In this document: positions 14,480-64,000 of the stretch, piece by piece
Layout of the letters: every line of letters starts with the position of its first letter
How positions within the stretch are numbered: position 1 is the first letter of the stretch
Source of the DNA: an uncultured Gammaproteobacteria bacterium
GTDB taxonomy: Bacteria > Patescibacteriota > Patescibacteriia > Magasanikbacterales > UBA922
Length of the DNA stretch: 64,000 nt
Reading direction: 5' to 3'
NCBI GenBank assembly: GCA_964345045.1
Contig: CAYFPM010000003.1
Coordinates: forward strand, 70,038 to 134,037
Made by a program: the position numbers and the translations under genes
Notes under the pieces: model-generated
Seen by the model: only the letters and a program-made list of their open reading frames with translations
Told to the model about the DNA's origin: nothing
Database searches by the model: none

Positions 14480-14547
14480 TTGTGTTTTTAAATTTTAAAG
14501 ACAAAAGGAAGTGGTAAAAAACACTTCAGAAAGACAAGAGACATTTC

Positions 14548-43320: not shown

Positions 43321-43328
43321 GGAATGAA

Positions 43329-43377
43329 GGTTGGCCCGCGTCCTGCTACAGCCGAAGCTGGAGGACGCGAGCCAACC
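43329..43377 (-). terminator. GC-rich 15-bp inverted repeat. It is a probable terminator or boundary hairpin for the foreign small gene.
   Basis: GGTTGGCCCGCGTCC, then 19 nt, then GGACGCGAGCCAACC. It lies directly 3' (minus strand) of 43395..43703. No clean U-run is present. Confidence 0.4.
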
Positions 43378-43394
43378 TATGGCCGCGAGGAGTA

Positions 43395-45717: not shown

Positions 45718-45720
45718 TAT

Positions 45721-45805
45721 AAGCAGATTAAGCAGAGTATGAATTAAGCAAACACTACCTTGCTTACTCTGCCTAATCTGCTTATTGCTTATTCTGCTTA
45801 TTTTT
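45721..45805 (+). terminator. Long hairpin terminator.
   Basis: AAGCAGATTAAGCAGAGTA...TACTCTGCCTAATCTGCTT is a 19-bp stem with 1 mismatch. It is followed by attgcttattctgcttattttt. Confidence 0.6.
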
Positions 45806-45826
45806 AGTCTTAATTCTACAAAATAC

Positions 45827-47320: not shown

Positions 47321-47337
47321 ACCAACCAAAAACACCT

Positions 47338-47368
47338 CAAAAAACCGCTAAAATAAGCGGTTTTTTCT
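47338..47368 (+). terminator. Intrinsic terminator.
   Basis: aaaACCGCTaaaataAGCGGTtttttc. Confidence 0.65.
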
Positions 47369-47405
47369 TATATTAGTTTTTAATCAAAAGTAGCCCTTTT
47401 AGACC

Positions 47406-47434
47406 TTGACAAATCCTCTAAAATATGGTATATT
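47406..47434 (+). promoter_or_regulatory. Near-consensus sigma70-like promoter: TTGACA, a 17-nt spacer, then TATATT.
   Basis: cTTGACAaatcctctaaaatatggTATATT lies about 85 nt upstream of the GT4 gene start. Confidence 0.5.
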
Positions 47435-47520
47435 TTTATGTTATTTTAGTGCCATATTCTTGGCTAAAAATAGACTAATTTTGCTATAAATTTAGATAAA
47501 ATACAAACCTTAATTAATAT

Positions 47521-48684: not shown

Positions 48685-48713
48685 AAAACCTCCGCATTAA
48701 CGGAGGTTTTTTG
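48683..48713. terminator. Bidirectional intrinsic terminator.
   Basis: aaaaaaCCTCCGcattaaCGGAGGtttttt. Confidence 0.7.
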
Positions 48714-48775
48714 ATACAAATTATTTGATCAAACTACCCACTACTCCCTACTCACTATACCCTAGTCCCTACTAT

Positions 48776-50809
48776 TTAAATTCCAGAAGATAGTCCGATA
48801 ATATCATCTGTCCCATCAAAATCCACATCTGCACTACGCACATCTATACCGGTTTTAAGAAGAGTTTTGTAAGCTGTTATATCTTTGTATAATTTTTTAC
48901 CACTAGCCTCAAATACTTTTATAATAGGGCCTTTGCCACTGCCCGCTCCCACTATCACCTCATCTTTGCCAACCCCGTCTACGTTACCAGCAGCTACATT
49001 TACCCCACCACGAAAACTTCGTTCAAAACCAAACCAACGATAAAGTCTACTTAGTGAATATCCCCCACCAACTTTAAAAATATTAATAGACGATTCACTA
49101 TTTTTGCCAGTACCAATTAGGATTTCATCATTACCATTGCCAGCTACATCGCCGAGCGCAATGCTATAACCATTTTTGTAATTGGTGCCAAATGGATACC
49201 ACTCTTCTACCAGTTTAAAACCATCTCTAGAATAAATTTTGATAGGAGCATTATAGCCATTACCAGGAGCAGTTACTATTTCTTTTTTACCATCGGCATT
49301 GATATCTCCTACAGCAATTTTTATTTCTCCCTTAAAATTGACCCCATACGGAAAAATTTTCATATAAAGTTCTCCATCGTCTCGCCAAGCGTAGAGCCTA
49401 TTTCTTTTCAAAGCTATCAAATCTCTTTTGCCATTACCATCTAGGTCAACATGAGCAATTTTGTCTCCCCCTTTATAATCATCTTCGAAAACAAAAAATC
49501 CATTTCTAACTTTGGTACTATCTGGACTTAAAAATCTCACAAAATCTCCATTGGTAAAGACCACATCTTCTAAAGTAGCAAAGGTTTTTAACATTACTCT
49601 ACCATCATAAGGCGCCAAAGTTTCTTCGGAAACAATGGCCCCATCGTTTATACGTGTATCTTGGGTGCCTCTTATTTTTTCGTACTCTCCTCCCAAACTT
49701 ACAGTTTGAGTACGATTGGAACTATTTACCACAGCCAAACCATGCTCATAGTTTCTCTGCCACACCCCAGCTTCAAAATCTTTTGCCCCATCCCCAGCTA
49801 CAGCCTGACCAAGACTACCCCCAAGGTCTGCATCGTATTCATCGTAATACCAAGTTTGTCCATGATCTGTATCACCAAAATCAAAAGAATAATAACCACC
49901 CACCAACAAAGCACTAGTAAGACCAAAACGCATTTTTTGATAGTCTACTTGTGAACCTTGATTAAAAGTATTGGCATTGAGAATATTTACTCTTGGGTGG
50001 GGACCTGCTTCGTGAAAATATTTATAAGTTCTCATGGTAGGACTCCAAGCTGCCGGCAAAAAATTTTCAATCATCTGGCCATTGAGTTTGTCTCTATAAA
50101 ATCTGGTAGTTCCATTTCCTACCAACCAATATTTGTCTCCAACCAATCTTCTGGTTTCGTCATAAAGAAAATTCATACCATCTCGCCAAGATTGATCTGG
50201 ATTGTTGTCTTTTTTTCTATTTAGATCCAAATCAATATCTGCCCCGGTAAACCAAGTAATCGAATCAAAAGTGTTGTCGTAAAAAACACCATCCCACAAA
50301 CCTGTAGAAAGTAATTCATAAGCTACAAACTCGGCCAAGGCTTTGTTCATTTTTTTGCCTTCTAGAGTAGGTGCCGAGGTACTCATGTTTAGCAAGTGTG
50401 CTCCTGGCCAAAAACTTAATTTTTGCCCTCTGGTATTTACAGCATACCAACGAGGATCTATTCTGGCAGCCAATTTTTGTCTCATTCTGCTTTTGCTAAT
50501 TGGTGCATTTTTTTCTATTTCTTGTGAAGTAATATACACCAACATTTTTATGTCGGGATTCAAACTTTTGATTAAATCTAATTGTCTACGACTGGTTACT
50601 TGGGTTTCCATGTCCAAAATAAGCAAATCCCATTTAGCCAATTGTCTGGCCGTGCTATCGTTTATTTGCCAATGTAAAAAATAATTAGCCTTTTGTAGAG
50701 AAGAATTATTGGCAGAAACAAAACTTGGTTGAAACAAAAAAGAGATAATTAAAGCCATTACTATAATTATCCTCTTTTTAATTTTGTTTTGATGAAAAAA
50801 TAGTTTCAT
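48776..50809 (-). CDS. Secreted protein. It has an N-terminal putative glycoside-hydrolase-like (GHL-type TIM barrel) domain and C-terminal FG-GAP/VCBS beta-propeller repeats.
   Basis: A signal peptide is present (MKLFFHQNKIKKRIIIVMALIISFLFQPSFVSA). The FG-GAP-like repeats include VGDINADGKKEIV, LGDVAGNGNDEILIG, AGNVDGVGKDEVIVG and ADVDFDGTDDIIG. Confidence 0.7.
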   Translation of the reverse strand: MKLFFHQNKIKKRIIIVMALIISFLFQPSFVSANNSSLQKANYFLHWQINDSTARQLAKWDLLILDMETQVTSRRQLDLIKSLNPDIKMLVYITSQEIEKNAPISKSRMRQKLAARIDPRWYAVNTRGQKLSFWPGAHLLNMSTSAPTLEGKKMNKALAEFVAYELLSTGLWDGVFYDNTFDSITWFTGADIDLDLNRKKDNNPDQSWRDGMNFLYDETRRLVGDKYWLVGNGTTRFYRDKLNGQMIENFLPAAWSPTMRTYKYFHEAGPHPRVNILNANTFNQGSQVDYQKMRFGLTSALLVGGYYSFDFGDTDHGQTWYYDEYDADLGGSLGQAVAGDGAKDFEAGVWQRNYEHGLAVVNSSNRTQTVSLGGEYEKIRGTQDTRINDGAIVSEETLAPYDGRVMLKTFATLEDVVFTNGDFVRFLSPDSTKVRNGFFVFEDDYKGGDKIAHVDLDGNGKRDLIALKRNRLYAWRDDGELYMKIFPYGVNFKGEIKIAVGDINADGKKEIVTAPGNGYNAPIKIYSRDGFKLVEEWYPFGTNYKNGYSIALGDVAGNGNDEILIGTGKNSESSINIFKVGGGYSLSRLYRWFGFERSFRGGVNVAAGNVDGVGKDEVIVGAGSGKGPIIKVFEASGKKLYKDITAYKTLLKTGIDVRSADVDFDGTDDIIGLSSGI

Positions 50810-50810
50810 T

Positions 50811-51875
50811 CTATTTGCTATCTTGCTTATATATTTTTAATAATTCTTCTATGTTTTTGTCCAAAGAAAAATTATCTTGGGCATATTTTTTGGCATTTTT
50901 GGCTATTTGTTTGGCCACATCGCGGTTGTGATGGATCAAACGAATCGCACTGGCCAAAGATTCGGCTTGTTCGGTAGGCACTACAACTCCGGTTTTCATA
51001 TTTTGGATCAAATCTTCTCCAGCTGCCACAGTACCAATTACTACTTTCCCAGCTGCCATAGATTCCATTATTGCCAAACTCATACCTTCCCAGAGAGAAG
51101 GTTGCACAATTATATCTATATCTAGCATAAATTTGGGCAAATTGTCAACTGTTCCGTGCCACTTTATTTTTTTGTCTATTCCTATGGATTTGGCTCTTTT
51201 TTGTAGTTTATCTTTTAAACTACCATCACCAAAAATATGTAATTCCAGAGGAATCTCTGGCAACTGAGCCAAAGCCAATAGGAGCACTTCGTGGCCTTTT
51301 TGTTTTTCCAATCTACCAATAGTTGCCAATTTTAATTTTTTATTTTGAAAGAGTTTTCCATTTAATTTGGACCAAATATTCAAAGCAATGGCATTTTTTA
51401 ATAAAATAATATTTGAATCTTCTATAAAAAAATCTTCTTCTAACTCTTTTTTTATACCTTCGGAGACTGTTATAACTTTGTCGGCTTTTTTTAGAATTAT
51501 TTTTAAATATTGTTGGCGAAAAAAATTCACTTCCTCGGATATTAGATTGTGCTGGGTGCTAAGCCAATTGATATTTTTTAATTTTTTCTTTAGTTTGTAG
51601 GCAGCCACATCTGCCGAAAACACATGAGAATGTATTATATCTGGTTGCCACTTTTTTATAAATTCTTCCAAATCTTTTAAATTTTTTTGAAAGTTGTTTG
51701 TACCTACTTTTGTTTCAATTTCTGCGTCTTGAAAAAGTTTGGCCATCTCTCCCCCACCTCGCACACTAGCAACCACCACTTCGTGCATTTGCATCTGCAA
51801 AATCTTGGCTTGCTCCAAAATAAGGTGCTCGGCTCCACCATGGGTAAATCTTGGTATTATATGAAGAATTTTCAT
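50811..51875 (-). CDS. Glycosyltransferase family 4.
   Basis: MKILHIIPRFTHGGAEHLILEQAKIL and EGMSLAIMESMAAGKVVIGTVAAG are present. Confidence 0.85.
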   Translation of the reverse strand: MKILHIIPRFTHGGAEHLILEQAKILQMQMHEVVVASVRGGGEMAKLFQDAEIETKVGTNNFQKNLKDLEEFIKKWQPDIIHSHVFSADVAAYKLKKKLKNINWLSTQHNLISEEVNFFRQQYLKIILKKADKVITVSEGIKKELEEDFFIEDSNIILLKNAIALNIWSKLNGKLFQNKKLKLATIGRLEKQKGHEVLLLALAQLPEIPLELHIFGDGSLKDKLQKRAKSIGIDKKIKWHGTVDNLPKFMLDIDIIVQPSLWEGMSLAIMESMAAGKVVIGTVAAGEDLIQNMKTGVVVPTEQAESLASAIRLIHHNRDVAKQIAKNAKKYAQDNFSLDKNIEELLKIYKQDSK

Positions 51876-51886
51876 AAAAATAAATT

Positions 51887-52003
51887 CCTCCCCTAGCAGG
51901 GGAGGCTAGGTGGGGTCAAATTATAATTCAACGCTTCCAATTCATATTGCCCCCCTCCCCGATACTTCGATCGAGGCAGGCTAGCTCCCCCTCTCAGGGG
52001 GAG
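51887..52003. repeat. Pair of related GC-rich hairpins in a divergent intergenic region. Each has a C-rich arm, a short loop and a G-rich arm.
   Basis: CCTCCCCTagcAGGGGAGG is at 51887-51905 and CTCCCCCTctcAGGGGGAG is at 51985-52003. Both are followed by a GGCTAG motif. This is unusual in an AT-rich genome. Confidence 0.45.
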
Positions 52004-52074
52004 AAAATTTATACAAAACAATTATTCTGCTATAATTAGCTAACAATATTATCTCATAAATTAGCCAAAAATCA

Positions 52075-53481
52075 ATGTTCGCAAGTGTAAACAAACAAAC
52101 AAAAAACTTAGTTATGATTATTAGTCTGATTTTGGGACTAGGAATTTTGGTAAATCCAAATGCTGGTGTAGATATTGGACTTACCGGTATTTTGGTTTTG
52201 CTCATTGCTCATATTTTTCTAAAAGAAAAAGTTATTCTTTTGTTTTTGCTAATCCGACCAACTTTGGACTGGTGGCGTGATTTGATTTTGTTTATCTATA
52301 GAGACAATGTTATCAATCTAAACGCTGCTTTTGCTATTCTTTTTTTGTTCTGGGCTAGTTTTACACTTTTTTCTTATAGACAATATTTCAAAAAACTACC
52401 TTTGAAAATTCCTATTTTGCTATTTTTTTTAGTAGTTGTAATTAGTGGTTCCCTCGGGATAAACCCTATAAACTCGGCTATAGAGGCTATCAAACTAGCC
52501 GATCTTATCCTTTTCTTTTGGCTTAGTTACATTTTGGTTTATGCAAGAAAAATTAGTAAAGCTCTATTTGTAAAAACTATTTTTGTGGCAGCAGTTTTGC
52601 CAATGTTGGCCGCTCTTTACCAACTCTTGCTAGGTTCTGGCCTGGCTACTTTTGATATTCGTGGTCGTATTTTTGGCACTCTCGGCCACCCAAATGTTTT
52701 TGCTTTTCTGGTGCTTAGCATAATTATTTTGTTTACCGATAAAAGTGTAATTAACGCCAATGACTTTTGGGAAAATAATAAATTAACTAGATTTATCATT
52801 TACTGTTTATTATTTACTTTACTCTTATTCACCTACACCAGAGTAACTCTTATTGGCCTAGCTATTTTCTTGGTTATCATTGGTGTTTACAAGTACAAAA
52901 AAATGCTTACTTGGCTAGTGGTTGGTACTGGACTTTTTTATTTAACTTTTTTTCCACTTAATAATTGGCTGGTAGACAATGCCAATGTTGATTTGTCGGC
53001 TATTCCCCTAGTTGGTCGTATTACTACCAGAAACGACGAAGCTGATTCTATTTCTTGGCGATTGTCTTTGCTCCGAGAAAACATGCCTATTATTCGTTCA
53101 CGCCCGGCTCTTGGTTATGGTTTTGGTAATTTTGAAGAAGTTTGGCGAGAGAACCGTAGTATAGAGCACCAATGGGACGACAGTGACGAAGCTCACAATG
53201 ACTATCTTAGGATCGCCCTTGAATTGGGTTTAACTGGCTTTATTGTTTATATTGCTTTTTTACTTAATCTACTTTATGTAGTTTCCAAAAAAGCTTTTGT
53301 AGATAAAAAATCTTTGCAAAAAAATATTCATCTTTTGGCTTGGGTTTTTATTTTCTTGGTGGTTAGTTTGTCGGACAACATGATCCGCCACACTCCGGTA
53401 ATGTGGATTACATTTAGCTACTGGGGAGCAGCTCTCGCCAAGAAAAAAACAGTTGATCCGGGGAGTTTTTTGAATAGTTAG
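52075..53481 (+). CDS. O-antigen ligase/polymerase (Wzy_C) family polytopic membrane protein.
   Basis: The 468-aa protein has about 12 TM helices. A periplasmic loop with ...GHPNVFAFLV..YTRVTLIGLAIF... is typical of Wzy_C. Confidence 0.8.
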   Translation: MFASVNKQTKNLVMIISLILGLGILVNPNAGVDIGLTGILVLLIAHIFLKEKVILLFLLIRPTLDWWRDLILFIYRDNVINLNAAFAILFLFWASFTLFSYRQYFKKLPLKIPILLFFLVVVISGSLGINPINSAIEAIKLADLILFFWLSYILVYARKISKALFVKTIFVAAVLPMLAALYQLLLGSGLATFDIRGRIFGTLGHPNVFAFLVLSIIILFTDKSVINANDFWENNKLTRFIIYCLLFTLLLFTYTRVTLIGLAIFLVIIGVYKYKKMLTWLVVGTGLFYLTFFPLNNWLVDNANVDLSAIPLVGRITTRNDEADSISWRLSLLRENMPIIRSRPALGYGFGNFEEVWRENRSIEHQWDDSDEAHNDYLRIALELGLTGFIVYIAFLLNLLYVVSKKAFVDKKSLQKNIHLLAWVFIFLVVSLSDNMIRHTPVMWITFSYWGAALAKKKTVDPGSFLNS

Positions 53482-53494
53482 TTTTTCAAAAACA

Positions 53495-53530
53495 AAAAAT
53501 CCAGAGATAATCTCTGGGTTTTTTGTTTGG
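53495..53530 (+). terminator. Intrinsic terminator.
   Basis: aaaaaatCCAGAGAtaaTCTCTGGgttttttgtttgg. Confidence 0.7.
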
Positions 53531-53589
53531 CATTGTTTTCTTTTGCAAAAAAACAATGTGTGAAGTGAGCTGTATATATTTGGTCAAGG

Positions 53590-53991
53590 TTAGTACTCAA
53601 GACTAATCCCCCGTTGTCCTTTTTCCCCCACATACGGCATAGGGCGAAAATAAGGTTGCGAGGTTGCAGCTGGAGGTTTTTTGCAGGTATACCACGGCTT
53701 TGGGCTATTGCCACAACGATAGATACGTGCTCCTGGCCACCTGTTACAGACCCTATTTCTATAGGTAGTAAATGCCTCCCCTTTTCTTGGAGTCATACTG
53801 ATCTTGGTAGAGTATCCTCTACTATCCCCCACATACACAGCAAAAGAACAAATGTGTGGTTTGGGCAAATGGCTTAGCGCCAATTCGTCGACACAGTGTG
53901 GTAGCCAACCGTGCAACCAATACAGTACTCCCAAAACCAAGAGCACATGGATACCTCGGATCTTTAGAGCCTCTTTGGCCAATCTGTTCAT
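53590..53991 (-). CDS. Small secreted cysteine-rich hypothetical protein (133 aa). It is the first gene of the high-GC block.
   Basis: An AAGGGAG Shine-Dalgarno precedes the ATG. The N-terminus has a signal/TM segment (GIHVLLVLGVLYWLHGWLP). The mature part contains 6 Cys. Confidence 0.55.
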   Translation of the reverse strand: MNRLAKEALKIRGIHVLLVLGVLYWLHGWLPHCVDELALSHLPKPHICSFAVYVGDSRGYSTKISMTPRKGEAFTTYRNRVCNRWPGARIYRCGNSPKPWYTCKKPPAATSQPYFRPMPYVGEKGQRGISLEY

Positions 53992-54066
53992 GTTACTCCC
54001 TTTCTTCTATCGAAGACATAGTAAAATATCAATAATTTGAGCAAATGTCAAGTATTATTTTGAAAC

Positions 54067-54095
54067 TTTTTTGGCTTGACATCCCCGCAATATAG
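54067..54095 (+). promoter_or_regulatory. Sigma70-like promoter: TTGACA, a 17-nt spacer, then TAGACT.
   Basis: TTGACAtccccgcaatatagtgcTAGACT. The -35 context TTGACATCCC is identical to the promoter at 13512. Confidence 0.45.
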
Positions 54096-54158
54096 TGCTA
54101 GACTGATCAGTCTTTCATAATTTATAGTGAAAGTAAGTTCTTTTTATTTCTACTAGCC

Positions 54159-54209
54159 GGTTGAACACGAGTTTCTAGCTTGAAGGAGGTTAGAACCTCG
54201 TGTTCAACC
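54159..54209 (+). promoter_or_regulatory. Leader hairpin with a 13-bp stem. Its loop contains a GAAGGAGG Shine-Dalgarno that precedes a 15-codon GTG uORF (54200..54247). The uORF stop overlaps the main ATG as ATGA.
   Basis: GGTTGAACACGAG...CTCGTGTTCAACC followed by aaaaaattttt. This is a possible attenuator or translational-coupling element. Confidence 0.35.
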
Positions 54210-54243
54210 AAAAAATTTTTCCAAATAGAAAAGGAAAAGAAGC

Positions 54244-55737
54244 ATGAATCACAGCTACGAAATTTGGTCCAGGCAACTGATAAACGCGGCAGACAAGGCC
54301 CTCCAAGATGTCGCTGCCCAACGAAAGCCCAACATGGGCTGGTGGCAAAGCTACTTGAAGCAATACAAGTTGCTAGGTGGAAAAACAGAAAAACTAGAAC
54401 GCTCTCCGGTGCTCGAGGCGGCCAACAATGTCTTTCATGTTTGGATAGCTCTTACCAACAGTATTCCGCTGTTGGTAGGGGTAGAGACAGGTATGGCCGA
54501 TCGCCACTACCTAGAAGCCTTTGTCCCAGACGAGTTCTTGGCGGCTATGACCGCCATCTTCTACGACATCTTGCCCCCTCACCAGAGGAATATCCTCATC
54601 AACAACCTGATTACGGCTCGTTTTCAAGAGGCTGCGACACCCTGGATTGCAGACCAGCGACAGCAGGCTCCGCAAACTCTAGAAAACACAAATATAAACA
54701 AGAGAGAAAATCTCTATCGAGAAATTCAAGCTCTTGCTAGGCTTTGGTTTGCTTCCACCAAGTTCGATCCTTTACCTCAGGCCGCTATCCAGTTCGGGCC
54801 ACAGGGGATCGAGCTAGATGCCACTCGATCGGAAAAAGTTGCTCACAATCTTTTGGCCAGTGAATTTGGTTTTGGTCCGGGTGGAGACCCCGAACCAGAA
54901 CACCGTCGCTGGGCCAAAAGGGTGATTGCCCAGTGTCGACACCGGCATCCTTGGGCTAGACCAGAGCGACTCGAGCGCTACACCGATGCCTTGCAGACGG
55001 TTCGAGACTACTATATTGGCGAGGATTCTGGAGAAGCTAGCGAGAAAATCCGTGATCAGGCCGAGAGGATGATGAGTTCTTTTGGTCTAGATGACGATTT
55101 TGCCTTGATCATGATCTTGGCAGAAGCTTTGGCACTAGCCACTGACTTTTTCTTGCACCCCAATATGTCGAACGAAGACAGGCTACGGGTGGTAGAGCAC
55201 ACCACTTACCAGCAGCTAATTCACAATGAGCTGAACCAACACGAGTGGCGAGTGATCTTGCATACTTTCTTGAGCATTGCCAGCAAAGGATCTCCTCTGG
55301 GAGTTCTTCGTATCGAACAGCTAGATCCGGATCTAGAAGAGGCATTGCAAACCAGGTTCAGAGCTATGGCTCTCATGTTCATGAAGGATCATGACTACAC
55401 GGTCAAAGAACCTCTGCACGTCTTGGCCGAACAAAAAGCCAACAGCCGTATGGCCAAAGCCAAACGTTTGGCAATGAGCAGCTTCTGGTGGGTCTTGCGC
55501 TTTGTACCGGTCTTGCTTTTCTCACGCGACCGAGCCAAGTTTGCTGCCAAGTGGCAGGAACTGCGCTCTATCTGGGGTCTACCTCCCAAGCCAGTCGAGG
55601 AAGTGGTAGAGACAGAGGCTTTGCCAGAGTCGGCCGACAAGACTGATCCTACAACAGAGGATGTAGAGACCACCGGCGATGTTGCCGAGGTCATCCCCAT
55701 GCGTTCTGCGGTTGGGGATCGTCCTTCCGAAAAATAA
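54244..55737 (+). CDS. Hypothetical soluble 497-aa protein of no recognisable family (elevated G+C).
   Basis: The long ORF is in a different frame from the Arg-rich overlapping ORF 54180..54740. Tandem terminators follow it. Confidence 0.65.
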   Translation: MNHSYEIWSRQLINAADKALQDVAAQRKPNMGWWQSYLKQYKLLGGKTEKLERSPVLEAANNVFHVWIALTNSIPLLVGVETGMADRHYLEAFVPDEFLAAMTAIFYDILPPHQRNILINNLITARFQEAATPWIADQRQQAPQTLENTNINKRENLYREIQALARLWFASTKFDPLPQAAIQFGPQGIELDATRSEKVAHNLLASEFGFGPGGDPEPEHRRWAKRVIAQCRHRHPWARPERLERYTDALQTVRDYYIGEDSGEASEKIRDQAERMMSSFGLDDDFALIMILAEALALATDFFLHPNMSNEDRLRVVEHTTYQQLIHNELNQHEWRVILHTFLSIASKGSPLGVLRIEQLDPDLEEALQTRFRAMALMFMKDHDYTVKEPLHVLAEQKANSRMAKAKRLAMSSFWWVLRFVPVLLFSRDRAKFAAKWQELRSIWGLPPKPVEEVVETEALPESADKTDPTTEDVETTGDVAEVIPMRSAVGDRPSEK

Positions 55738-55751
55738 TTAGCTAGTAGTTT

Positions 55752-55848
55752 GGTACGAATAGTATTCGTACCTCCCATTCCTTTTGTTCTAAAATTTTTA
55801 GACCAAAAGCAAATAAAAAATCCTGAGTTACACTCAGGATTTTTTATT
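55752..55848. terminator. Tandem terminators between convergent genes.
   Basis: GGTACGAATagtATTCGTACC with a T-rich tail is at 55752-55790. aaaaaaTCCTGAGTtacACTCAGGAttttttatttc is at 55815-55848 and is bidirectional. Confidence 0.65.
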
Positions 55849-55980
55849 TCTCACTAAAACTTTTTTGCAAAGTTTTACTGGGAAGGTACGCCGGGCCGGA
55901 GCAGCTACTCGAGTTTCATCCGAAGATGATCCAAGAGAAGTGCTCCGGCCCTGGTTTAGGCGCGGACGATGAGAAGCTTG

Positions 55981-57957
55981 CTACGGACAGCCGTCGTCAG
56001 GCACACCGTTGCAGTCGTTGTCGTACCCCAGGTCGGCCGGGTTGGCGGGATCGCTCTCGCACCACTCGACCGCCCCAGGATGGTTCTGGAAACCCGTCGG
56101 GGTATCGTCGCAGTCACCACCGAGCAACTGAGAGACCGGAATCGAGCTGTTGCTAGACCCTCGACAAGGCGACACCTCGCAGTAGCCGTCCCCGTCGTCG
56201 TCCCAATCGTCCGCCGTGCCGTCGCTCTGCGGACCACCGTTGGCACCACTGGCACCATACGGCGTCCTACCGCGCTGATCCACGTAGGGCGCGCACAAGT
56301 TGCACGCCCAGTACGAACCGGCGGGGCAGGTCTGCTGCTGGGTGCAGCTACCACCCGTGGCCACGCACATGTCGGTGACCTCGTCGCAGACCTGACCGGC
56401 ACTGCAGGTGACCACAGTGCCCGACTGGCAGGTACCGCTCTGGCACGTCTCCGTTCCGTTGCAGTACGAACCATCGTCACAGTCCGCGTTCACCGTACAC
56501 TGCGGCGGAGCCGCGGCGCAGTCGGGATCGTCTCCGTCGACGAGCCCGTCGGCGTCATTGTCCCAGTTGTCCGTGCAGTTGCCAAAGGCCTGGGTCTCGG
56601 GCTCGAAGGCCCCATCCCCGTCGTTGTCCTCGGCGCTGGTACAGACGTGACCCGTGGGCGTGGTCGTCGCAGTGTTGGTCGACGAACAGCCCCAGAGGAA
56701 GCCGGCCGGCAAGTTCGCCGGGGTGCGGTTCTCGAGGGGAGATCCGTTCCCGGTGATACCAGTCGGCGTCTGCATGCATTCTGCGTCCGAGGTCGGACCG
56801 TTGCAACAGTCGGGAATCCAGGACTGAACGCACTGACCGTTGACCGCCCCGTGCGTGGTGCACGCGTTGTTGTCGGCACAGTCCACGCACTGGTTGCTCT
56901 GGCAGGCGAAGCCCACCGCACAATCCGCATCCGTGGCACAGCCCAAGCACGTACCGGCCGTCACCCCCGAGATGTCCGAACACACACCGCTGGCGCAGTC
57001 GTTGTGATCGTCACAGCAGAGGGGGTTGGTGCTGGCCGTGTTCACGCAAGCGTGATTCACGGCGTTGTCGGTGGTACAGGCGTCGCCGTCGTCGCAGTCG
57101 AGAACCGTACAGATGTTCGCGGTGCAAACTTCGTCGGTACGACAGTGGGCGTCCACGAGACACTGCTCGCAGGTACCCGCCGCCGAGGTCGAGGTCTCGG
57201 TACAGAACAAGCCGTCTTGGCACGGAGCCGAGGCAGGCGCGGCGTTGCAACAGTTGGGAATGGCCTGGTTCACGCACCCCATCGTCCCGACGGTGTCCGT
57301 GGTGCAGGCGTTGCCATCGTCGCAGCCGGTGCAGGTGTCGGTGGTATCATCGCAGTACTCGGTAGCGAGGCAGGCACTGGCGCCGCTCTGGCAGGTACCG
57401 GAGACCATGTCGCAGGTCTCGGCACCGTTGCAGAAGAGGCCGTCACTGCAGTCCGCGTCCGAGAGACAGCTGACGCAGCGATCGCCCGCCTCGTCGCACA
57501 TCTCGGTGGCGGCACACGGAGGCGCGGTCACTTGGCAGGTACGTCCGGTGGTGGACGTCCCCACGCAGGTGGCGCTCCCGTTGCAGAAGAGGCCATCGGC
57601 CCCGCAGTCCGCGTCGGAGAGGCACTGACAGCTGATCCCCTCGTCGACATTGCCATCGCAGTTGTCGTCGATACCGTTGCAGATCTCGGTGGCGCCGGGG
57701 TAGACGTTCGGGTTGTGATCGTCACAGTCCGGAGGCCCATCGACGATGGCTCCATCGTTGCAGTTGTTGTCGTAGTACGTCTGATTCGGAGAACCGTCGC
57801 CGTCGCTGTCGATGGAGTTCTTGTCATCGCAGATGTGGACACGGACAGTGCCCGAAACGTTGACGAAGTCGGTACCGCAAGCCGTGAGGCCCGCGGTGAG
57901 CAGGAAGGTGAAGAGAGACAGACAGAGTCGCTTGGCTTGCGCCATGGTGACCTCCAA
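55981..57957 (-). CDS. Cys-rich repeat lipoprotein (658 aa). It carries Myxococcales-type cysteine-rich repeats and MopE-like putative metal-binding motifs. G+C is very high, roughly 65-70% by eye.
   Basis: A GGAGG Shine-Dalgarno lies 6 nt upstream. The lipoprotein signal is MAQAKRLCLSLFTFLLTAGLTAC. Recurring motifs include DCDDHNPNVYPGATEICNGIDDNCDG, CxSDADCxDGLFCNGxETC and CDDGNACTTDxxxxxxC. Confidence 0.8.
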   Translation of the reverse strand: MEVTMAQAKRLCLSLFTFLLTAGLTACGTDFVNVSGTVRVHICDDKNSIDSDGDGSPNQTYYDNNCNDGAIVDGPPDCDDHNPNVYPGATEICNGIDDNCDGNVDEGISCQCLSDADCGADGLFCNGSATCVGTSTTGRTCQVTAPPCAATEMCDEAGDRCVSCLSDADCSDGLFCNGAETCDMVSGTCQSGASACLATEYCDDTTDTCTGCDDGNACTTDTVGTMGCVNQAIPNCCNAAPASAPCQDGLFCTETSTSAAGTCEQCLVDAHCRTDEVCTANICTVLDCDDGDACTTDNAVNHACVNTASTNPLCCDDHNDCASGVCSDISGVTAGTCLGCATDADCAVGFACQSNQCVDCADNNACTTHGAVNGQCVQSWIPDCCNGPTSDAECMQTPTGITGNGSPLENRTPANLPAGFLWGCSSTNTATTTPTGHVCTSAEDNDGDGAFEPETQAFGNCTDNWDNDADGLVDGDDPDCAAAPPQCTVNADCDDGSYCNGTETCQSGTCQSGTVVTCSAGQVCDEVTDMCVATGGSCTQQQTCPAGSYWACNLCAPYVDQRGRTPYGASGANGGPQSDGTADDWDDDGDGYCEVSPCRGSSNSSIPVSQLLGGDCDDTPTGFQNHPGAVEWCESDPANPADLGYDNDCNGVPDDGCP

Positions 57958-58437
57958 TCAAAGCCAGCTTCTCGAAAGATGCTGACGAGTTACAAGTTCT
58001 GGCGCCCCGGAATGGAGCTCCACAATCGTGGTGCCTTGTCCCAGGCGCCTCGGGTCGTTGGGCAGCTAGGTAGCCATCCGCAGAGTTTGGTTTTTTTGTA
58101 GTCATAGAGAGTGCTAACGAAAGATCCAAGTGGTAATAGAAAAAGATACTTCTAATCCACTGCTTTACGCTCAGTATGACTAATTAACAAAAACAAACTC
58201 TGCAGACAACTTGCCTAGCAAAATCTTCTCATCGATTGTAATGAACAATCGTGTCTACTGTTTGAGTAGTGACACATAAAATATTTAGTAAACAACTAAC
58301 TATTTTATCTATCACAACTTTTTTACAAACTCTCTTTTGCCTTCAAACTTTTTTTAAAAGCACAAGAGAATTCGAGGTGTGGGCAGGGCACCTCTTCGAA
58401 CCGAAGTCCGAAGAGGGCCTGCCCACTGAAGCAAGAA

Positions 58438-58851
58438 CTACTGATCGATCGTGACCGTGGTCTGACCACTGTCGCGATTGACGTAGGCGTCGAGGTCGAG
58501 CTCGACCTCGGTCTTGCGGTCGAACCCACCGTTGGCCGCAATGGCTCCCACGGTGATGGCACCGGCGAGCAACAACACGCCGATGCCGATCGCGATCCCG
58601 ATGGTCGTGTTGTGCTCGCGCACGTCACGAGCCACGACGTCCTCGGCCTTGCGGCTCTTCCTGACCCGCTCCACGCACTTGCCGTACTCGGCCTTCTCGG
58701 ACGGATCCGAGAGGTTGAGCGGCACGCACACCGCCTCCGGGCTGGGGAGCCCGGCGGTCGGCGAACGCGGCGTGGTGGCGCAGCCCGAAGCGAAGACCAG
58801 CATGCAGACGAAGATAGAGACGAGACTGTAGAAGAAGTTGTTGTTCTTCAT
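58438..58851 (-). CDS. Glycine-zipper (2TM-type) lipoprotein.
   Basis: An AAGGAG Shine-Dalgarno lies 7 nt upstream of the second ATG. The lipobox is LVFASGC. The C-terminal IGIAIGIGVLLLAGAITVGAIAANGG is a glycine zipper. The start overlaps the stop of the upstream gene. Confidence 0.7.
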   Translation of the reverse strand: MKNNNFFYSLVSIFVCMLVFASGCATTPRSPTAGLPSPEAVCVPLNLSDPSEKAEYGKCVERVRKSRKAEDVVARDVREHNTTIGIAIGIGVLLLAGAITVGAIAANGGFDRKTEVELDLDAYVNRDSGQTTVTIDQ

Positions 58852-58868
58852 GATCTGGTTCTCCTTAT

Positions 58869-59837
58869 TCATCGCACGCCACCACGAACCGCAGTCCGCA
58901 TGCTTCGACGCTCGGCTTCGGCCGCGGTGGCCTTCTGCTCGAGGTTGTCGATGCGGATGTTGTCCCGGTTGTGACCGCTACGCAACAGAGTGATCGCATC
59001 CATGATCGACACGGTATCGGCAGCCCTGGCGGTCGCCTCGTCGACGAACGTCTTGTCCACGGCCGCGGCTCGCGCCTTGGCCGCCTTGGCGTTGGCAGCG
59101 ATCTTGGCCGTATTGGCCTTGATCTCGGTGTCGAGCGCGGTGTGAACCGTCGCCACGTCGCCACGAACCACCGCTTCGCGGGTGTCCGTGTAGGTCTTGG
59201 CGACCCGCTCCGTCTTGTCGATCTTCTGATCGGTCTCCATGTCGTGGAGCTTGCCCGCGAAGTAGGAAACCGTGAAGCCGAACGCGACGATGCCAGCCAG
59301 AGCGCCGATGACGCCCCAGCTCTTGCCACTCGACCACGAGTTCTTCATCTCGGCGCGGGTCTGCGCATCGATGAAGTCCCCGCGCAGGTCTCGCACCTCG
59401 TCGCCGAGGCGCTCGACCTGTCCGATGCGGTGCTGCGACAAGGTGTCGAGCTCCACGCCGTCGCCACCATTGCGCCCGTAGCGCTGCTGGGGACGGCTGG
59501 CCGCATCGAGCTGGTCGCCGAGCGCCCGCTCGGCCACGCCGATGTAGCGCCCGGCCAAGTCCGCGGTCAAGCGGTCGTGGCGCGGCTCCGGCACCTGCAG
59601 ACGAACCTGCGGCAAGTCCACGTCGACCGTGGGCCGCTGGGGCTCTCGGTCGACCACCACCGGCTCACGCCGCGTCGGCCGCTCGCCGACGTAGGTCTCG
59701 TCGATCTGGTCACGGTAGACCGGACCGCCGAAGTGGTGGTGATGCTGGTGCTCGTGTAGCCCTTGGCGTCGAGCGTCGTCGAAGGGATCCTGCCGGGTCC
59801 CGGGGTTCATGTTCAGTTCGGTTGCGTCACCGGACAT
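58869..59837 (-). CDS. Hypothetical bitopic membrane protein. It has a His-rich disordered N-terminal domain, one TM, and an Ala/Lys-rich coiled-coil C-terminal domain.
   Basis: An AGGAGGAA Shine-Dalgarno lies 6 nt upstream of the ATG at 59837. The His-rich tract is HEHQHHHH. The TM is WGVIGALAGIVAFGFTVSYFAG. The gene is co-transcribed with the downstream lipoprotein, overlapping it by 4 nt. The longer ORF-track N-terminus runs into AT-rich promoter DNA. Confidence 0.65.
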   Translation of the reverse strand: MSGDATELNMNPGTRQDPFDDARRQGLHEHQHHHHFGGPVYRDQIDETYVGERPTRREPVVVDREPQRPTVDVDLPQVRLQVPEPRHDRLTADLAGRYIGVAERALGDQLDAASRPQQRYGRNGGDGVELDTLSQHRIGQVERLGDEVRDLRGDFIDAQTRAEMKNSWSSGKSWGVIGALAGIVAFGFTVSYFAGKLHDMETDQKIDKTERVAKTYTDTREAVVRGDVATVHTALDTEIKANTAKIAANAKAAKARAAAVDKTFVDEATARAADTVSIMDAITLLRSGHNRDNIRIDNLEQKATAAEAERRSMRTAVRGGVR

Positions 59838-60364
59838 GGTGTTCCTCCTAGTCCGATCAAGTGCCCGAGAAAAAATCTCAGGCCAGGTTGTAAGTACTAG
59901 CGAAAAATCCGCGCTGCAGGGCATGCCTAGCAGACATGCTTGTCTGGCTACTGCCAGGCATCCCCACAACGGGGGTCCTCTACAAACACGGTTATTAGCT
60001 ACAAAATTTGCAACCAATATTCCGTGTTTGTAAAAGTAGTTCTTGCTTCTTGTAAAGAACCGTGTCAACTATATTTGTGACACCTGAGATATACACCAAA
60101 TTGATATATATTTCAATAGGCACAAAAAACCAATAAAGCATTTTTTAACATCATATAATAGCACATTTTAACAAATTTGTCAAGACTCTTATTAACTAAT
60201 TATTATATTTGTGTGTCTTAATTTTTGTTAAAAATTTGCCTAATTTTAGCTATTTTTACAAGACCTTTTGTCCACAATAATTATTCTGAACAAAAGGAAG
60301 TGGCGGCACTCTGTAGTATCTCTACTATAGAGTGCCGCAAAAAAATGAAGCAGTGTGTGAGGCT

Positions 60365-62617
60365 CTAGCTAGAGCTACCCCCACGAGACGGCCACGGAGA
60401 CCTAGAACCCAATCCAGTCCCCCTAGAGCTATGCTCATCCAAGGCGGCCTGGGACTCCGGATCCAGATCCGTCGACAGACTCACCTCTCCGTTACTCGGA
60501 GCAGAATCGTCGGTATCCCACGAGGGCCTAGGCGTCACCACCGTCTCGGGCAGATCCCGAGGCAGAGCCTCTCGCAAGGGAGGCTCCGGGTCTTGCCCAG
60601 CGTCTCCCGACGATGAGGGCAAGTCCTCGGTGGTTACCTCCGGGTCAGTCTCCTCTGCCGGCGAGGGCAGACGGAACTCCGGAGCATCCAGCCCGAAGGT
60701 ACCTTCGAAGTTACTGATACCGGCAAGCAAGACATCGATCTCGTCGCCAGTACTGCGTTTGAGCTGCTTGGGCATCTCACCAGTCCAGCCCTGGCTCCGC
60801 AGCCAGTCCTCGTTCGGTACGCAGCCGTTCTGGGCCTCTTCGCGGCTGGGCCACGAGAGCGGCCAGCGCGGCAGCTTCTGATCCCCGGCCAAGGCCATGG
60901 CCTCCATGGCGAACACCCTGGAGAGAACATCGGCCAACGAACCTTCGTAGCACTGCTGAGCGTACCGCCGAATGAGGTCGTAGGACACCCCCGGACTCTT
61001 GGACAGAGCTCGGTAGACCGGGTTCAGAAGGCACATCTGAACCGCCTGAAGCATGGTTGGGTAGACCTTGGTACGCAGTTTATCCACAGCCTTGCGAGCG
61101 CGCTCGATGGCCTCCGTGGGATCGACCCAATCGAGAGACTCGAGAGTCTCACGATCGAGATGCCAGGGCCTCTGCCCCAACGTCTCGAGAGGATCGCTCT
61201 TGACCGGCAGGTCGCTGCGCCACGGGGGCACATGGTAGCCGTCGGCCTCCAGCTCTTGCTTGGCCAGGAGAAGCTTCCGTAGGACATCGCCCGGGCCGTC
61301 TTCTCGTTGCCAGTGCTCCGAGAAGGCCTGCTCGAGCTGTGCCGTAGTCTGGCAGTTGCCTTGCGGCGACTGCTGCCCGACCCGACCGATGCGCCACTCG
61401 TGGTAGTTCATGAGAGCCTTCGAGGCTTCTGCCTGGAGGGTCAGATACTTCTTCTCCTCCGGACTCATGAACAGGTACTTCCAAGTCATGGCCTTGTAGA
61501 CCAAGAGCAGAAGCACCACCGCCATGGCGAGGCCAAGGATGACCCAACGGGTCTCTTGGTCTACCTTGCGCAGCTCGGTGAGAGCCTCACTCGTGTCGGA
61601 GTAGCCCCCCTGGTACCAACGCTGATCCGGCTTCTCGGCCTTTACCAGTGCTGCCAAGTCCATGGCCTTGAGCTCTTCGAGCTTGGCCTGGAACTCGGCT
61701 TCCAGCTTGGCCAGAGCCTCTCGCTTGTCCTTGGTATGCTTCTCCTCGAGACCGGGCGTCTCGGCGTCGAAACCAGCCAAGATCGACTCGGTCTGGCCTT
61801 CGTAACTGTCTTGACTCCCGGCTGCGGCACCCGCTGCTCCAGAGAGAGCGGCAGCCGCCGCGGCTCTGGCCGAAGCGATCGAGGCGATAGTGCTGGTACG
61901 GGTACCAGCCCAACGCGCCGAGCGCATGGTCCGACGAGCCCGACGACCTCGAGCCTTGGCACCGGCTCGCCGACGCCGCTCGATTTGGTCCTTGGTAGCT
62001 GCTCGATCCGACTGAAAGGCGGCCTTGGCACCAGCAAGCTGGCCCTCGGCCGCCGTGATCTGGGGCTCGTACTCGGCCTTGATCTTGGCTTCGGCCGCCG
62101 TACGGAGTTCGAGCTCGATCTTGTCGTTCTGAGCGGTCATCCAGCGATCGATGTCGCTTTGGAAGATGGCCATCTCGAAGTACTTGGCAAACCCAAACTG
62201 GATGATGAACACCACAGCGATGTAGACCAGATACTTGAACTTGCTTCCCGAGCTTACTCGCCAACTGTCTGGGCTGGCGATGTAGATGGTTCGGTGCAGA
62301 GCGGCGATGGCAGCTGCCACGAGCAGGCCTGCCAGAATGGCAATGGCCAGCTGCGTGTACAGCCCGTACTGATCCAGGAAGAGGCTCACGTACTTCGCGG
62401 CTCCCACCGCATCATACGCAAACAAGACGGCGAGAATGATGGTGGCGCCCACGAGGACACCTTCCATCTTCTCGGTGATCTTGTCGAAGCCTTTCCGAAG
62501 GAGGAACGGGTCAAAGGGCTTCTTGCCCAAGTTGTCGGTGTTGTTGGTATCCACGAAAGAACCTCCCTTTCTGTGGAGATCGGTGCAGTAGAGACAAATC
62601 GCCTCAAACTGCTTCAT
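60365..62617 (-). CDS. Large hypothetical membrane protein of about 750 aa. It has N-terminal TM helices, a long Ala/Arg/Glu-rich coiled-coil, an internal TM, a C-terminal globular domain and an acidic Pro/Ser-rich tail.
   Basis: The ORF is 60365..62803, with a GTG at 62803 in AT-rich DNA. I chose the first ATG (MKQFEAI, 62617) but the start is uncertain. G+C is above 60% by eye. Confidence 0.6.
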   Translation of the reverse strand: MKQFEAICLYCTDLHRKGGSFVDTNNTDNLGKKPFDPFLLRKGFDKITEKMEGVLVGATIILAVLFAYDAVGAAKYVSLFLDQYGLYTQLAIAILAGLLVAAAIAALHRTIYIASPDSWRVSSGSKFKYLVYIAVVFIIQFGFAKYFEMAIFQSDIDRWMTAQNDKIELELRTAAEAKIKAEYEPQITAAEGQLAGAKAAFQSDRAATKDQIERRRRAGAKARGRRARRTMRSARWAGTRTSTIASIASARAAAAAALSGAAGAAAGSQDSYEGQTESILAGFDAETPGLEEKHTKDKREALAKLEAEFQAKLEELKAMDLAALVKAEKPDQRWYQGGYSDTSEALTELRKVDQETRWVILGLAMAVVLLLLVYKAMTWKYLFMSPEEKKYLTLQAEASKALMNYHEWRIGRVGQQSPQGNCQTTAQLEQAFSEHWQREDGPGDVLRKLLLAKQELEADGYHVPPWRSDLPVKSDPLETLGQRPWHLDRETLESLDWVDPTEAIERARKAVDKLRTKVYPTMLQAVQMCLLNPVYRALSKSPGVSYDLIRRYAQQCYEGSLADVLSRVFAMEAMALAGDQKLPRWPLSWPSREEAQNGCVPNEDWLRSQGWTGEMPKQLKRSTGDEIDVLLAGISNFEGTFGLDAPEFRLPSPAEETDPEVTTEDLPSSSGDAGQDPEPPLREALPRDLPETVVTPRPSWDTDDSAPSNGEVSLSTDLDPESQAALDEHSSRGTGLGSRSPWPSRGGSSS

Positions 62618-62899
62618 TGTGAAATCGGACGGAAAACCGCCCCGAATTGGGAATCCGAGGTAACGGCTTCCACAATTTTTGGCTTGTAATCCACATAAGC
62701 CAAAAATTGTAAAAGCCGATCGGTAAAAAACCGTCCAAACATTATAAAGAACTCCGCTTTGGGTACAATTGTCCCACTTTAAGCGAACGGATAAAGATAC
62801 CACAAAATCAAACTTTTGTCAAGATTTTTTGCTAAATTTAGCTAAAATAAGCAAAAAACGCCCAAAGTAGGACGTTTTTATACTTGTTTAAATTGTTTT

Positions 62900-64000
62900 C
62901 TAGGCTGCTTTTGGCAAAGCAGGCTCTTTTCTAACCAATTGCATCTTGTCGTCTACCACCTCTACTTCGGCCAAAAATGATTCTGTCCCATCTACTGATT
63001 CTACCAAAAATCCTGTTTCCCCTGCCGGAGCCGGTTTGAAATTGTAGTTTTTGTCGTAGAAAAAACTTTCTCCTACATTTTTATCCCAAAACTTAATGGC
63101 ATGAGATCCTTCTGGAACAGCAAAATAAGGATCATCTTCGGTTACGCCTCTTAAGAAAATTTTAGATTCTGCATCCAAGTTTTTGAACGTTGCCAGCAAA
63201 TTTTCTGTTGGACTTTTGCTAGTATCGATTTGCATTCCAGTAAATACTGAATCCTCACCCAAACTTAATTTTTGGAAACGTAGAGCTTGTTCAAAACTTT
63301 CGGCAATTGATTTGGCTTTGTCACTAGCATTTAATTTTATATCTCTAAAGGTAGCCATATCGTTGTCTACTTTGGATATATAAGCTTGTTCGGCTTGGCT
63401 GTAACCAGATGCCATCTCTGCCCCAGAAGCAGCTGCTGGTTCGGCCGGCTCGGCTGCTGCTTCGGCTTTTGGAGTAGCAGTTTCAACTATTTTTTCGGTG
63501 CCATATACTCCACCACTACTTTGTGCCAAATCTGTTGTATCTGCAGCAAGAAAATCTTTTTCTTTGGCTTCGTCCAAACTAACTTCTTCTTGACCTACCT
63601 TTACCTCTGCTTCTCCGAGAGGTTCTTTGACAATTAATTCCGAACCGCCGGTTAATTCTAATTTTGTTCCATCGGCACTTAATTTCAAATGACCAATTAT
63701 ACTACCGTCTTTGGCAAAGGCAGCCCAATCGGCTTGGTCTACAGCGCCAACTCTGCCACTGTATAATCTACCAACCTGATCAATCCCCGCTTCGGTAGGG
63801 ACAAATCTAGCAATTCCATCTGTTCCTACTTCTTGGTTTACAGCAATTCCGTTGGCAAATTCTTGTGGAATTTTGTCTCCTTTGTATACAAAATTAGCGC
63901 CTCTTGATTCATCTGGTAATATAATTTTTTTATCACCTTGAACAATTGTATCCCTATAAAATTGTTCGGACAGATCTCCTTTTAGATCTAGATTACCGCT
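62900..64000 (-). CDS. Hypothetical protein, partial (the 5' end lies beyond the window end). It is low-GC and host-like.
   Basis: The reverse-complement frame is open from 64000 down to the stop at 62900. The ORF-track start at 63688 is only an internal TTG. The product is hydrophilic with Ala/Glu/Pro-rich linker regions. Confidence 0.6.
   Translation of the reverse strand, partial: SGNLDLKGDLSEQFYRDTIVQGDKKIILPDESRGANFVYKGDKIPQEFANGIAVNQEVGTDGIARFVPTEAGIDQVGRLYSGRVGAVDQADWAAFAKDGSIIGHLKLSADGTKLELTGGSELIVKEPLGEAEVKVGQEEVSLDEAKEKDFLAADTTDLAQSSGGVYGTEKIVETATPKAEAAAEPAEPAAASGAEMASGYSQAEQAYISKVDNDMATFRDIKLNASDKAKSIAESFEQALRFQKLSLGEDSVFTGMQIDTSKSPTENLLATFKNLDAESKIFLRGVTEDDPYFAVPEGSHAIKFWDKNVGESFFYDKNYNFKPAPAGETGFLVESVDGTESFLAEVEVVDDKMQLVRKEPALPKAA

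Follow-up and report, generated by a model that had tools for sequence, protein, structure and literature searches.

The subject of this analysis is a gene for a cysteine-rich lipoprotein, located on the minus strand within a GC-rich island of an otherwise AT-rich stretch of 64,000 nt from contig CAYFPM010000003.1 (this whole stretch is termed the window). The open reading frame (ORF) is uninterrupted over 55981..57957, comprising 658 aa when counted from TTG 57957 as in the ORF list; the preliminary description of this DNA had given the same limits. Reading the sequence upstream reveals a GGAGG element spaced by 5 nt from ATG 57945 (Table 1). Because TTG 57957 overlaps this Shine–Dalgarno element, the real start is likely ATG 57945, with a product of 654 aa, and the TTG is an unlikely start. 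Residues are numbered for the 654-aa form unless stated otherwise. The G+C fractions at the three codon positions are 0.56, 0.57 and 0.81 (GC1, GC2 and GC3), and this pattern, a Pfam match and 1191 database homologues together fix the coding frame; the gene and its frame are real.

Shadow ORFs with a length of at least 80 aa, 10 or more in number, overlap the gene on both strands; five or more had been reported previously. One of them is 55969..58101(+), with 710 aa, in which the first position of the codons falls on the GC-rich third position of the lipoprotein gene. A public gene call on the ENA contig L005 (69 kb, truncated), at 11837–13204 (+), corresponds to window positions 56080–57447 and is a 456-aa shadow ORF on the wrong strand. 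Neither form of the product (658 or 654 aa) nor the 710-aa shadow ORF gave a match when looked up as an exact product. The 654- or 658-aa product is also missing from a collection of 15 billion proteins in which all its neighbours are present.

Table 1. Features of the lipoprotein gene, its surroundings in the window and the contigs that tile them
Feature	Position in the window	Strand	Comment
Cys-rich lipoprotein coding sequence	55981..57945	-	654 aa + stop; ORF list, start context, composition, homologues
Shine–Dalgarno GGAGG	57951..57955	-	5 nt upstream of ATG 57945
Lipoprotein signal peptide, MAQAKRLCLSLFTFLLTAGLTA followed by C	57877..57945	-	lipobox LTAC; Cys23 is the predicted lipidation site; AlphaFold2 helix
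N-terminal D/N-rich segment (aa 24–72)	57730..57876	-	DSDGDG loop; regex and module table
Sole significant MopE-type motif (aa 73–102), DCDDHNPNVYPGATEICNGIDDNCDGNVDE	57640..57729	-	PF11617; weak MopE* alignment
Repeats A1 and A2 (aa 106–207)	57325..57630	-	self-similarity scores 108–137 versus null maximum 53
Repeats B1-C1, B2-C2 and B3 (aa 208–390)	56776..57324	-	self-similarity scores 90–110; DNA direct repeats D2 and D4
Acidic Ca-loop segment (aa 438–476), EDNDGDG...NCTDNWDNDADGLVDGDDPDC	56518..56634	-	teneurin-4 C-rich domain alignment
Repeat A3 (aa 477–531)	56353..56517	-	score 137 versus A2; pLDDT 82–90 in full-length model
C-terminal degenerate MopE-like tail (aa 579–654)	55984..56211	-	DDWDDDGDG and DNDCNG loops; module table
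GC-rich 3′ hairpin, UUCG-type loop, no T-run	55895..55949	-	right after the lipoprotein stop; -32.1 kcal/mol, z -2.46
AT-rich bidirectional intrinsic terminator, host type	55811..55849	.	79% identical to one at 53490–53528
p137	58438..58851	-	lipobox (FASGC), C-terminal transmembrane segment; exact product in public assemblies
p322	58869..59837	-	one transmembrane segment and coiled coil; AGGAGG ribosome-binding site
Sigma-70-type promoter TTGACA-17-TATTAT	60155..60183	-	AT-rich, ahead of the p322/p137 unit
p729	60365..62554	-	multi-transmembrane and coiled-coil ORFan
Promoter TTGACA-17-TATCTT	62794..62822	-	AT-rich, ahead of p729
p102, fifth GC3-rich ORFan, 102 aa	43395–43703	-	GC3 0.80–0.92; 12 kb from the island
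Tiling contigs	L005 44244–57449; L002 49695–56288; L007 56284–59258; L013 57433–60929; L015 59584 to beyond 64000		

The chain starts with MAQAKRLCLSLFTFLLTAGLTAC, comprising a charged n-region and a hydrophobic helix that lead into the lipobox L-T-A-C noted previously. Lipoproteins were recognized here by a charged n-region, a hydrophobic h-region and a lipobox of the form [LVI][ASTVI][GAS]C within the first 15–35 residues or so; in this protein K5 and R6 are followed by LCLSLFTFLLTAGL and then by L-T-A-C23, the pattern of a signal peptidase II substrate. The AlphaFold2 (AF2) model places a helix at residues 2–22, with a predicted local distance difference test score (pLDDT) of 88–90. Copies of Lgt are reported in other members of the candidate phyla radiation (CPR) (PMC4736985). 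The mature chain, of pI about 4.05, contains 101 acidic and 9 basic residues. The protein has 76 Cys (11.6%), well short of the approximately 110 first estimated, together with 8 His and 7 Met (658-aa form). After the lipidated Cys 74 remain, an even number that is compatible with 37 disulfides.

The internal repeats were mapped by windowed Smith–Waterman self-comparison in windows of 45 aa, BLAST self-comparison being uninformative, with 300 composition-matched shuffles as the null. Window scores reach 137 against a null maximum of 53, far above chance, and a protein built largely of Cys-rich repeats, as originally proposed, is thereby confirmed. From the signal peptide and lipobox the chain continues as a D/N-rich segment and the MopE-type motif, and then passes into the units A1, A2, B1-C1, B2-C2 and B3. 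Beyond B3 it forms a T/P linker, the acidic Ca-loop segment, A3, a short Cys tail, a further linker and finally a degenerate MopE-like tail. The three A units (A1, 106–157; A2, 158–207; A3, 477–531) have approximately 50 aa and the form CxSDADC..DGLFCNG..TC..C..C..CDE..D.C. The three B units, starting at aa 208, 283 and 355, have the form CDDGNACTTD..C..CC, and two short C units of the form CxxDADC..C..C follow B1 and B2 at aa 259 and 333. This repeat consensus is common to the lipoprotein and 19 homologues. The C-terminal tail is marginal in its self-similarity to aa 61–71 (55 versus the null maximum of 53). Six acidic DxDxDG-like loops, at residues 46, 93, 440, 462, 580/582 and 642, are located at both ends of the chain and in its middle. 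The architecture is one MopE motif succeeded by an A/B/C array; the previously suggested alternation of some 12 modules of MopE and myxobacterial Cys-repeat type is not observed.

The full-length AF2 model has a mean pLDDT of 52.5 and is confident in A1-A2, C1 and A3. Modelled alone, A1-A2 reaches a pLDDT of 86.6 and is predicted to form short β-hairpins. Most of the chain is of low confidence in the full-length model. A Foldseek search of the full-length model against the PDB returned nothing significant, and A1-A2 is likewise without a solved structural relative there.

The one family model that exceeds its curated threshold is PF11617 (Cu-binding_MopE), which aligns over its full profile (1–30) to aa 73–102 with 48.1 bits (cutoff 27; E 1.4e-12). 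This is a single stretch in the whole protein, amounting to 5% of it, and scanning the C-terminal third alone gave no match; one of the MopE motifs foreseen is therefore real, and multiple copies are not. The myxobacterial Cys-repeat model TIGR04201 (Myxo_Cys_RPT), also expected to match, remains below its cutoff (15.5 versus 25 bits, E 0.014, best at aa 336–357 in the 658-aa numbering), as do PF00526 (Dicty_CTDC; 14.4 versus 27 bits, on the B1-B2 fragment) and PF04706 (Dickkopf_N, a Cys-rich domain of colipase fold; 21.7 versus 25 bits, in the A1-A2 region). High-coverage homologues of the lipoprotein do carry PF00526.

Sequence searches of the PDB gave two alignments that bear on metal binding. 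Residues 63–104 align weakly to residues 9–48 of MopE* (2vov_A, E 0.011), and residues 456–489 align to the C-rich domain of teneurin-4 (7plp_A, E 0.0049), a module whose six Cys are paired 1–3, 2–5 and 4–6. The teneurin-4 domain holds three Ca2+ ions by means of D840, D843, N844, D845, D847, D851, D854 and D856 (PMC9058538), and all eight aligned side-chain ligands are kept in the lipoprotein, as D459, D462, N463, D464, D466, D470, D473 and D475. In MopE* itself Ca2+ protects against proteolysis (PMC3423442).

A surface protein that binds or scavenges copper or another transition metal, working like MopE/CorA of methanotrophs, might be expected from the name of the PF11617 motif, the weak alignment to MopE* and the many potential ligands of a surface-tethered chain. 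The Cu(I) of MopE is bound by Kyn130 (an oxidized Trp130), His132 and His203 (PMC3423442). These residues are all outside the stretch of MopE* to which the lipoprotein aligns, and it is acknowledged that PF11617 covers a small and unspecific part of MopE (PMC6189053). There are few His and Met in the 658 aa, the even number of Cys is as for disulfides and not for free thiolate ligands, and the acidic loops present O-ligands of the Ca2+ type (PMC9058538). Because the Cu(I) ligands are beyond the aligned stretch, PF11617 is unspecific and the teneurin ligands are kept, the putative binding of Ca2+ is better supported than that of copper. The latter is unsupported, so that the copper-type ligands suggested earlier fall away, and we regard a role in copper handling as improbable.

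The composition of the gene sets it apart from the surrounding genome. The latter has about 33% GC (about 30–38% in the first 53 kb of the window), rising to 65% at an island of about 6.6–8.4 kb that comprises the lipoprotein gene and three other GC3-rich envelope ORFans, p137, p322 and p729. GC3 is 0.22–0.31 in 35 host genes, compared with 0.81 in the lipoprotein gene, ∼0.89 in p137, 0.85 in p322 and ∼0.74 in p729, and it is uniform from the first to the last codon within each island ORF. Host-like genes are found on both sides of the island, that beyond 62900 having a GC3 of 0.29. Intermediate values occur in p497 (54244–55737; 0.55) and p133 (53590–53991; 0.46). None of p729, p322, p137, p497 and p133 has a family in NCBIfam or Pfam.

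The host is assigned to Candidatus Magasanikbacteria (CPR), because the 1262-aa protein encoded at 36541–40329 has dozens of full-length homologues at 40–70% identity of which all the named ones are from that group. Both the earlier description of a CPR-like genome of low GC content and that of a gene foreign to it agree with these data.

The spacers within the island are of the opposite kind, with 26–36% GC and long leaders, and two of them contain strong AT-rich promoters, for the p322/p137 and p729 units (Table 1). The 16-mer AAAAATCTTGACAAAA, which is a promoter -35 region with an upstream A-tract, occurs exactly ahead of p729 at 62814–62829 (-) and again in host DNA, at a host gene, at 42902–42917 (+); allowing two mismatches or fewer it has four matches in the window, where 0.42 are expected. 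The terminator immediately downstream of the foreign lipoprotein gene similarly has its counterpart (53490–53528) in host DNA. By comparison, GC-rich hairpins without a T-run terminate every GC-rich gene or operon (55895–55949, 58380–58425, 60300–60340 and, for p102, 43310–43380, all on the minus strand). The four range from -26 to -41 kcal/mol, with a UUCG-type tetraloop in three; that of p102 is one of these (-41.5 kcal/mol, z -5.9). They look like donor-type elements that were brought in with the ORFs. They were also considered as parts of integron cassettes, a reading that was rejected: no attC-type R′′/R′ cores are visible and promoters separate the cassettes. No Rfam family reaches its gathering score in the window, the island giving sub-threshold terminator-like matches only.

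Such a jump from 33% to 65% GC could arise if DNA of a GC-rich organism had been wrongly joined to a CPR contig by an assembly or binning artefact, and the continuity of the locus was examined in MEGAHIT contigs of runs ERR2281802 and ERR2281803, obtained via ENA, and in Logan contigs. Five independent contigs from several sequencing runs, 99.9–100% identical to the window, tile 44244–64000 (Table 1), and further Logan contigs are at least 99.5% identical. All the supporting contigs come from a single project (PRJEB17505), and the independent assemblies do break within GC-rich genes. Both outer junctions of the island are nevertheless spanned, the break in each run is bridged by a contig of the other run, and the MEGAHIT and Logan assemblies agree. 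In addition, the series of GC-rich ORFs is interrupted five times by AT-rich spacers bearing host-type promoters and terminators, second copies of the island's 16-mer and terminator occur in DNA that is undisputedly of the host, and host-like genes flank both sides. Given the tiling contigs and the interleaved host-type spacers, a chimera is therefore very unlikely. The assembly breaks are at 56284–56288, 57433–57449 and 59258–59584, all inside GC-rich genes, two of them in the lipoprotein gene and none in AT-rich DNA; this distribution points to reduced coverage where GC is high, to repeats or to variation among strains.

No orthologue of the lipoprotein was found in 185,579 GTDB species genomes and the JGI metagenomes, which gave motif-level matches only; viral contigs, phage genomes and plasmids contain no match to either the lipoprotein or p729. 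The best collinear matches have 29–32% identity over 62–68% of the query (65–97 bits). The central A/B/C array, about 70% of the protein, is best matched by proteins of Planctomycetes/Phycisphaerae (P0029, P0018, P0113 and P0120; 32–47% identity), while those from Bacteroidota, Myxococcota, Desulfobacterales and one archaeon match essentially just the 30-aa MopE motif. P0059, the closest high-coverage relative whose gene context was read, is native in a diderm genome of 55% GC. Patescibacteria are absent from the taxonomically named homologues, so that the affinity outside that phylum predicted by the preliminary description holds. Its Myxococcota-type architecture does not, since the core matches Planctomycetota and the TIGR04201 model fails.

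Taken together, we lean towards the view that this is a horizontally acquired, membrane-tethered, Ca2+-stabilized and disulfide-stapled stalk or adhesin on the CPR cell. After export by the Sec pathway and lipidation at Cys23, a surface chain of roughly 630 residues and of extremely acidic character would be formed. It would fold as a string of small β-hairpin modules, in which up to 37 disulfides could form because of the 74 Cys that remain. The six acidic loops, variously of MopE-motif, thrombospondin-type-3-like and teneurin-C-rich-like type, would flank or interrupt these modules, bind Ca2+ and so rigidify the chain. The resulting stalk or adhesin would be stiff and protease-resistant, and probably serve in contact with a partner cell or a surface. 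Horizontal acquisition is the most likely origin of the lipoprotein gene and its three envelope-gene neighbours, which would have been taken up from one or more GC-rich donors and now lie behind host-like AT-rich spacers.

Several points weigh against this proposal. Just one type of module scores above a curated threshold, about 60% of the full-length AF2 model has a pLDDT below 50, and the teneurin match is borderline, with two of the six disulfide Cys replaced (C852 by G471 and C858 by A477). No clean sigma-70-type promoter is seen directly upstream of the lipoprotein gene. No integrase domain is present in the island ORFs, no tRNA in the window and no direct repeats at the flanks. Searches of GTDB, JGI metagenomes, viral contigs, plasmids and phages yielded no donor. 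The cluster of p729 homologues has one member labelled Candidatus Parcubacteria, so that the donor of this gene may lie within CPR; p729 gives only a self-match in a word-indexed search, and its 13 homologues are remote (22–27% identity). Lastly, simple transfer of a block does not explain AT-rich spacers beside un-ameliorated synonymous sites.

The Parcubacteria label, the borders devoid of integrase and tRNA, the host-like spacers with their promoters and terminators and the fifth GC3-rich ORF 12 kb away would all suit a gene set native to CPR, by vertical descent or exchange within CPR, whose GC-rich synonymous sites were kept by a local process, and the Cys-rich extracellular proteins of Peribacteria, with their weak similarity to Myxococcus repeats, could be cited to the same effect (PMC4736985). 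The failure to find an orthologue in the genomes and metagenomes searched and the absence of Patescibacteria among the named homologues argue against it, as does the coexistence of GC3 values of 0.74–0.92 and 0.22–0.31 in one replicon. We know of no intrinsic mechanism that generates such a contrast within a replicon, and a native origin is considered unlikely.

The function proposed above may also be compared with that of a delivery or presentation scaffold in a conflict system, be it a toxin, a phage-derived lysis module or a defence module. Two proteins of Phycisphaerae join the same repeat array to an enzyme, which is an S8 peptidase in P0113 and an endonuclease in P0120. In the island p137 combines a lipobox and a C-terminal transmembrane segment with a weak match to PHROG 456 ('Rz-like spanin', E 1.9e-4), and its start abuts the 3′ end of p322, itself a transmembrane and coiled-coil protein. 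However, Pfam and NCBIfam scans of the lipoprotein reveal no enzymatic or toxin domain, the spanin match is the only one to PHROGs and there is none in PADLOC among seven proteins tested (six from the island region), and relatives are lacking on viral contigs, phage genomes and plasmids. There is in our view only a slight chance that such a scaffold, and not an adhesin, is the correct description. The combination of lipobox and C-terminal transmembrane segment in p137 is the layout of unimolecular spanins.

The unusual part of the locus is the combination of un-ameliorated codon usage with fully host-like spacers, plus a fifth such ORF, p102, at a distance. A speculative idea, which we would give a low probability, is that the GC3-rich units, four in the island and p102 as a fifth, are promoter-less cassettes made up of a ribosome-binding site, an ORF and a GC-rich UUCG hairpin, which an episymbiotic CPR bacterium would capture repeatedly from a GC-rich partner (possibly its host) and put behind its own AT-rich promoters. 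If true, the cell could vary its surface proteins with others derived from the partner, for use in attachment or mimicry; CPR would then have a way of capturing genes that has not been described before, and the genome would point directly to the host of Magasanikbacteria.

The p102 gene has a GGAGG ribosome-binding site and a host-style TTGACA..TATTTT promoter, and its product has no match in Pfam, PADLOC or PHROGs. It adjoins an HTH_17 excisionase-like gene (42972–43283) and a gene for an extracytoplasmic function (ECF) sigma factor (41984–42586). Intermediate GC3 (0.45–0.55) is found at 13602–15183 (+), 53590–53991 (-) and 54244–55737 (+), including the gene of a NUDIX protein, and these genes may be older, partly ameliorated acquisitions. 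Two of them, at 13602–15183 and 53590–53991, run on the opposite strand within a cluster that is otherwise on the minus strand. This is a large envelope-glycosylation cluster in window 1–53500, with many GT1, GT2 and GT4 glycosyltransferase genes and sugar-modifying enzymes, at least five PMT_2/ArnT-like proteins, two Wzy-type proteins, two AsnB-type amidotransferases and one GHL15/FG-GAP protein. It fits a heavy investment in surface polymers by this CPR genome.

Within the island, p729 contains an Arg/Ala-rich low-complexity stretch at residues about 215–260 (RRRRAGAKARGRRARRTMRSARWAGTRTS...AAAAAA), with a GC3 of 0.52–0.64 just before it; this may be a true linker or reflect a problem with the frame at this place. 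In p322 four nonsynonymous differences (V276L, M279I, L284R and S287R) occur within 36 bp, at window 58977–59012 (codons 276–287). The four-change patch is identical in contigs of three runs (L008, L009 and L013), the remaining locus being nearly identical, and represents either a short hypervariable patch or the allele of a second strain. A diversity-generating retroelement was considered for it and dropped: the window contains no reverse transcriptase, and the changes lack the specificity for adenine.

The current view of CPR/Patescibacteria is that they live attached to other cells. To our knowledge, the partner and the attachment machinery are unknown for most CPR lineages, Magasanikbacteria included. 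The lipoprotein, probably imported, expressed from signals of native appearance and encoded beside other foreign envelope proteins, is a concrete candidate for such machinery, and its un-ameliorated codon usage could be used to trace the donor, possibly the host, among the GC-rich genomes of the same samples. Our literature search found nothing on PRJEB17505, or on Magasanikbacteria with horizontal gene transfer and GC content. The value is in the context and not in a new protein family: Planctomycetota, Myxococcota and Bacteroidota commonly have proteins of this kind, and earlier work had noted Cys-rich surface proteins in CPR.

Among known systems, the closest in the array are the Planctomycetota repeat proteins, in which units of 'CDDGLFCNGxETC' and 'DGVxCTxDxCDExxDxC' alternate with a Cys spacing equal to that of the lipoprotein in the alignment consensus, covering up to 96% of its A/B/C array. 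The likeness is at the level of the repeats only (best 97 bits), with no collinear orthologue. The Planctomycetota proteins are larger and some are fused to enzymes, whereas the lipoprotein has more degenerate units, which Ca-loop segments and the lipobox cap. The MopE-related PF11617 proteins of Bacteroidota, Myxococcota and others share the motif DCDDxxxxxxPGAxExCNGxDDNCDG with it, and are likewise secreted or surface-located and rich in Asp, Asn, Gly and Cys; they have many tandem copies of the motif, often with type IX secretion system (T9SS) or lectin domains, in contrast to its one significant copy. MopE/CorA of methanotrophs (PDB 2VOV) has the N-terminal motif region alone in common, both being surface-associated; the copper site and the remainder of the MopE fold are absent from the lipoprotein (PMC3423442). 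The likeness to teneurin C-rich and thrombospondin type-3 repeats (PDB 7PLP; PMC9058538) is that of the eight aligned Ca2+ ligands in segment NCTDNWDNDADGLVDGDDPDC; the YD shell of teneurin is absent and no other domain is shared. The nearest precedent within the CPR is that of Peribacteria, for which large, Cys-rich extracellular proteins have been described that weakly resemble the Cys-rich repeat proteins of Myxococcus, a role in attachment being proposed for them (PMC4736985). These are larger (about 1,655 aa), have about 7% Cys and are not reported to be of foreign composition. Compared by description, they resemble the lipoprotein in their CPR host, signal peptide, high Cys content and weak Myxococcus-repeat likeness (PMC4736985). 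In the light of this precedent the earlier view that such a protein is unexpected in a small AT-rich genome was overstated, although it was right as to the foreign composition of the gene.

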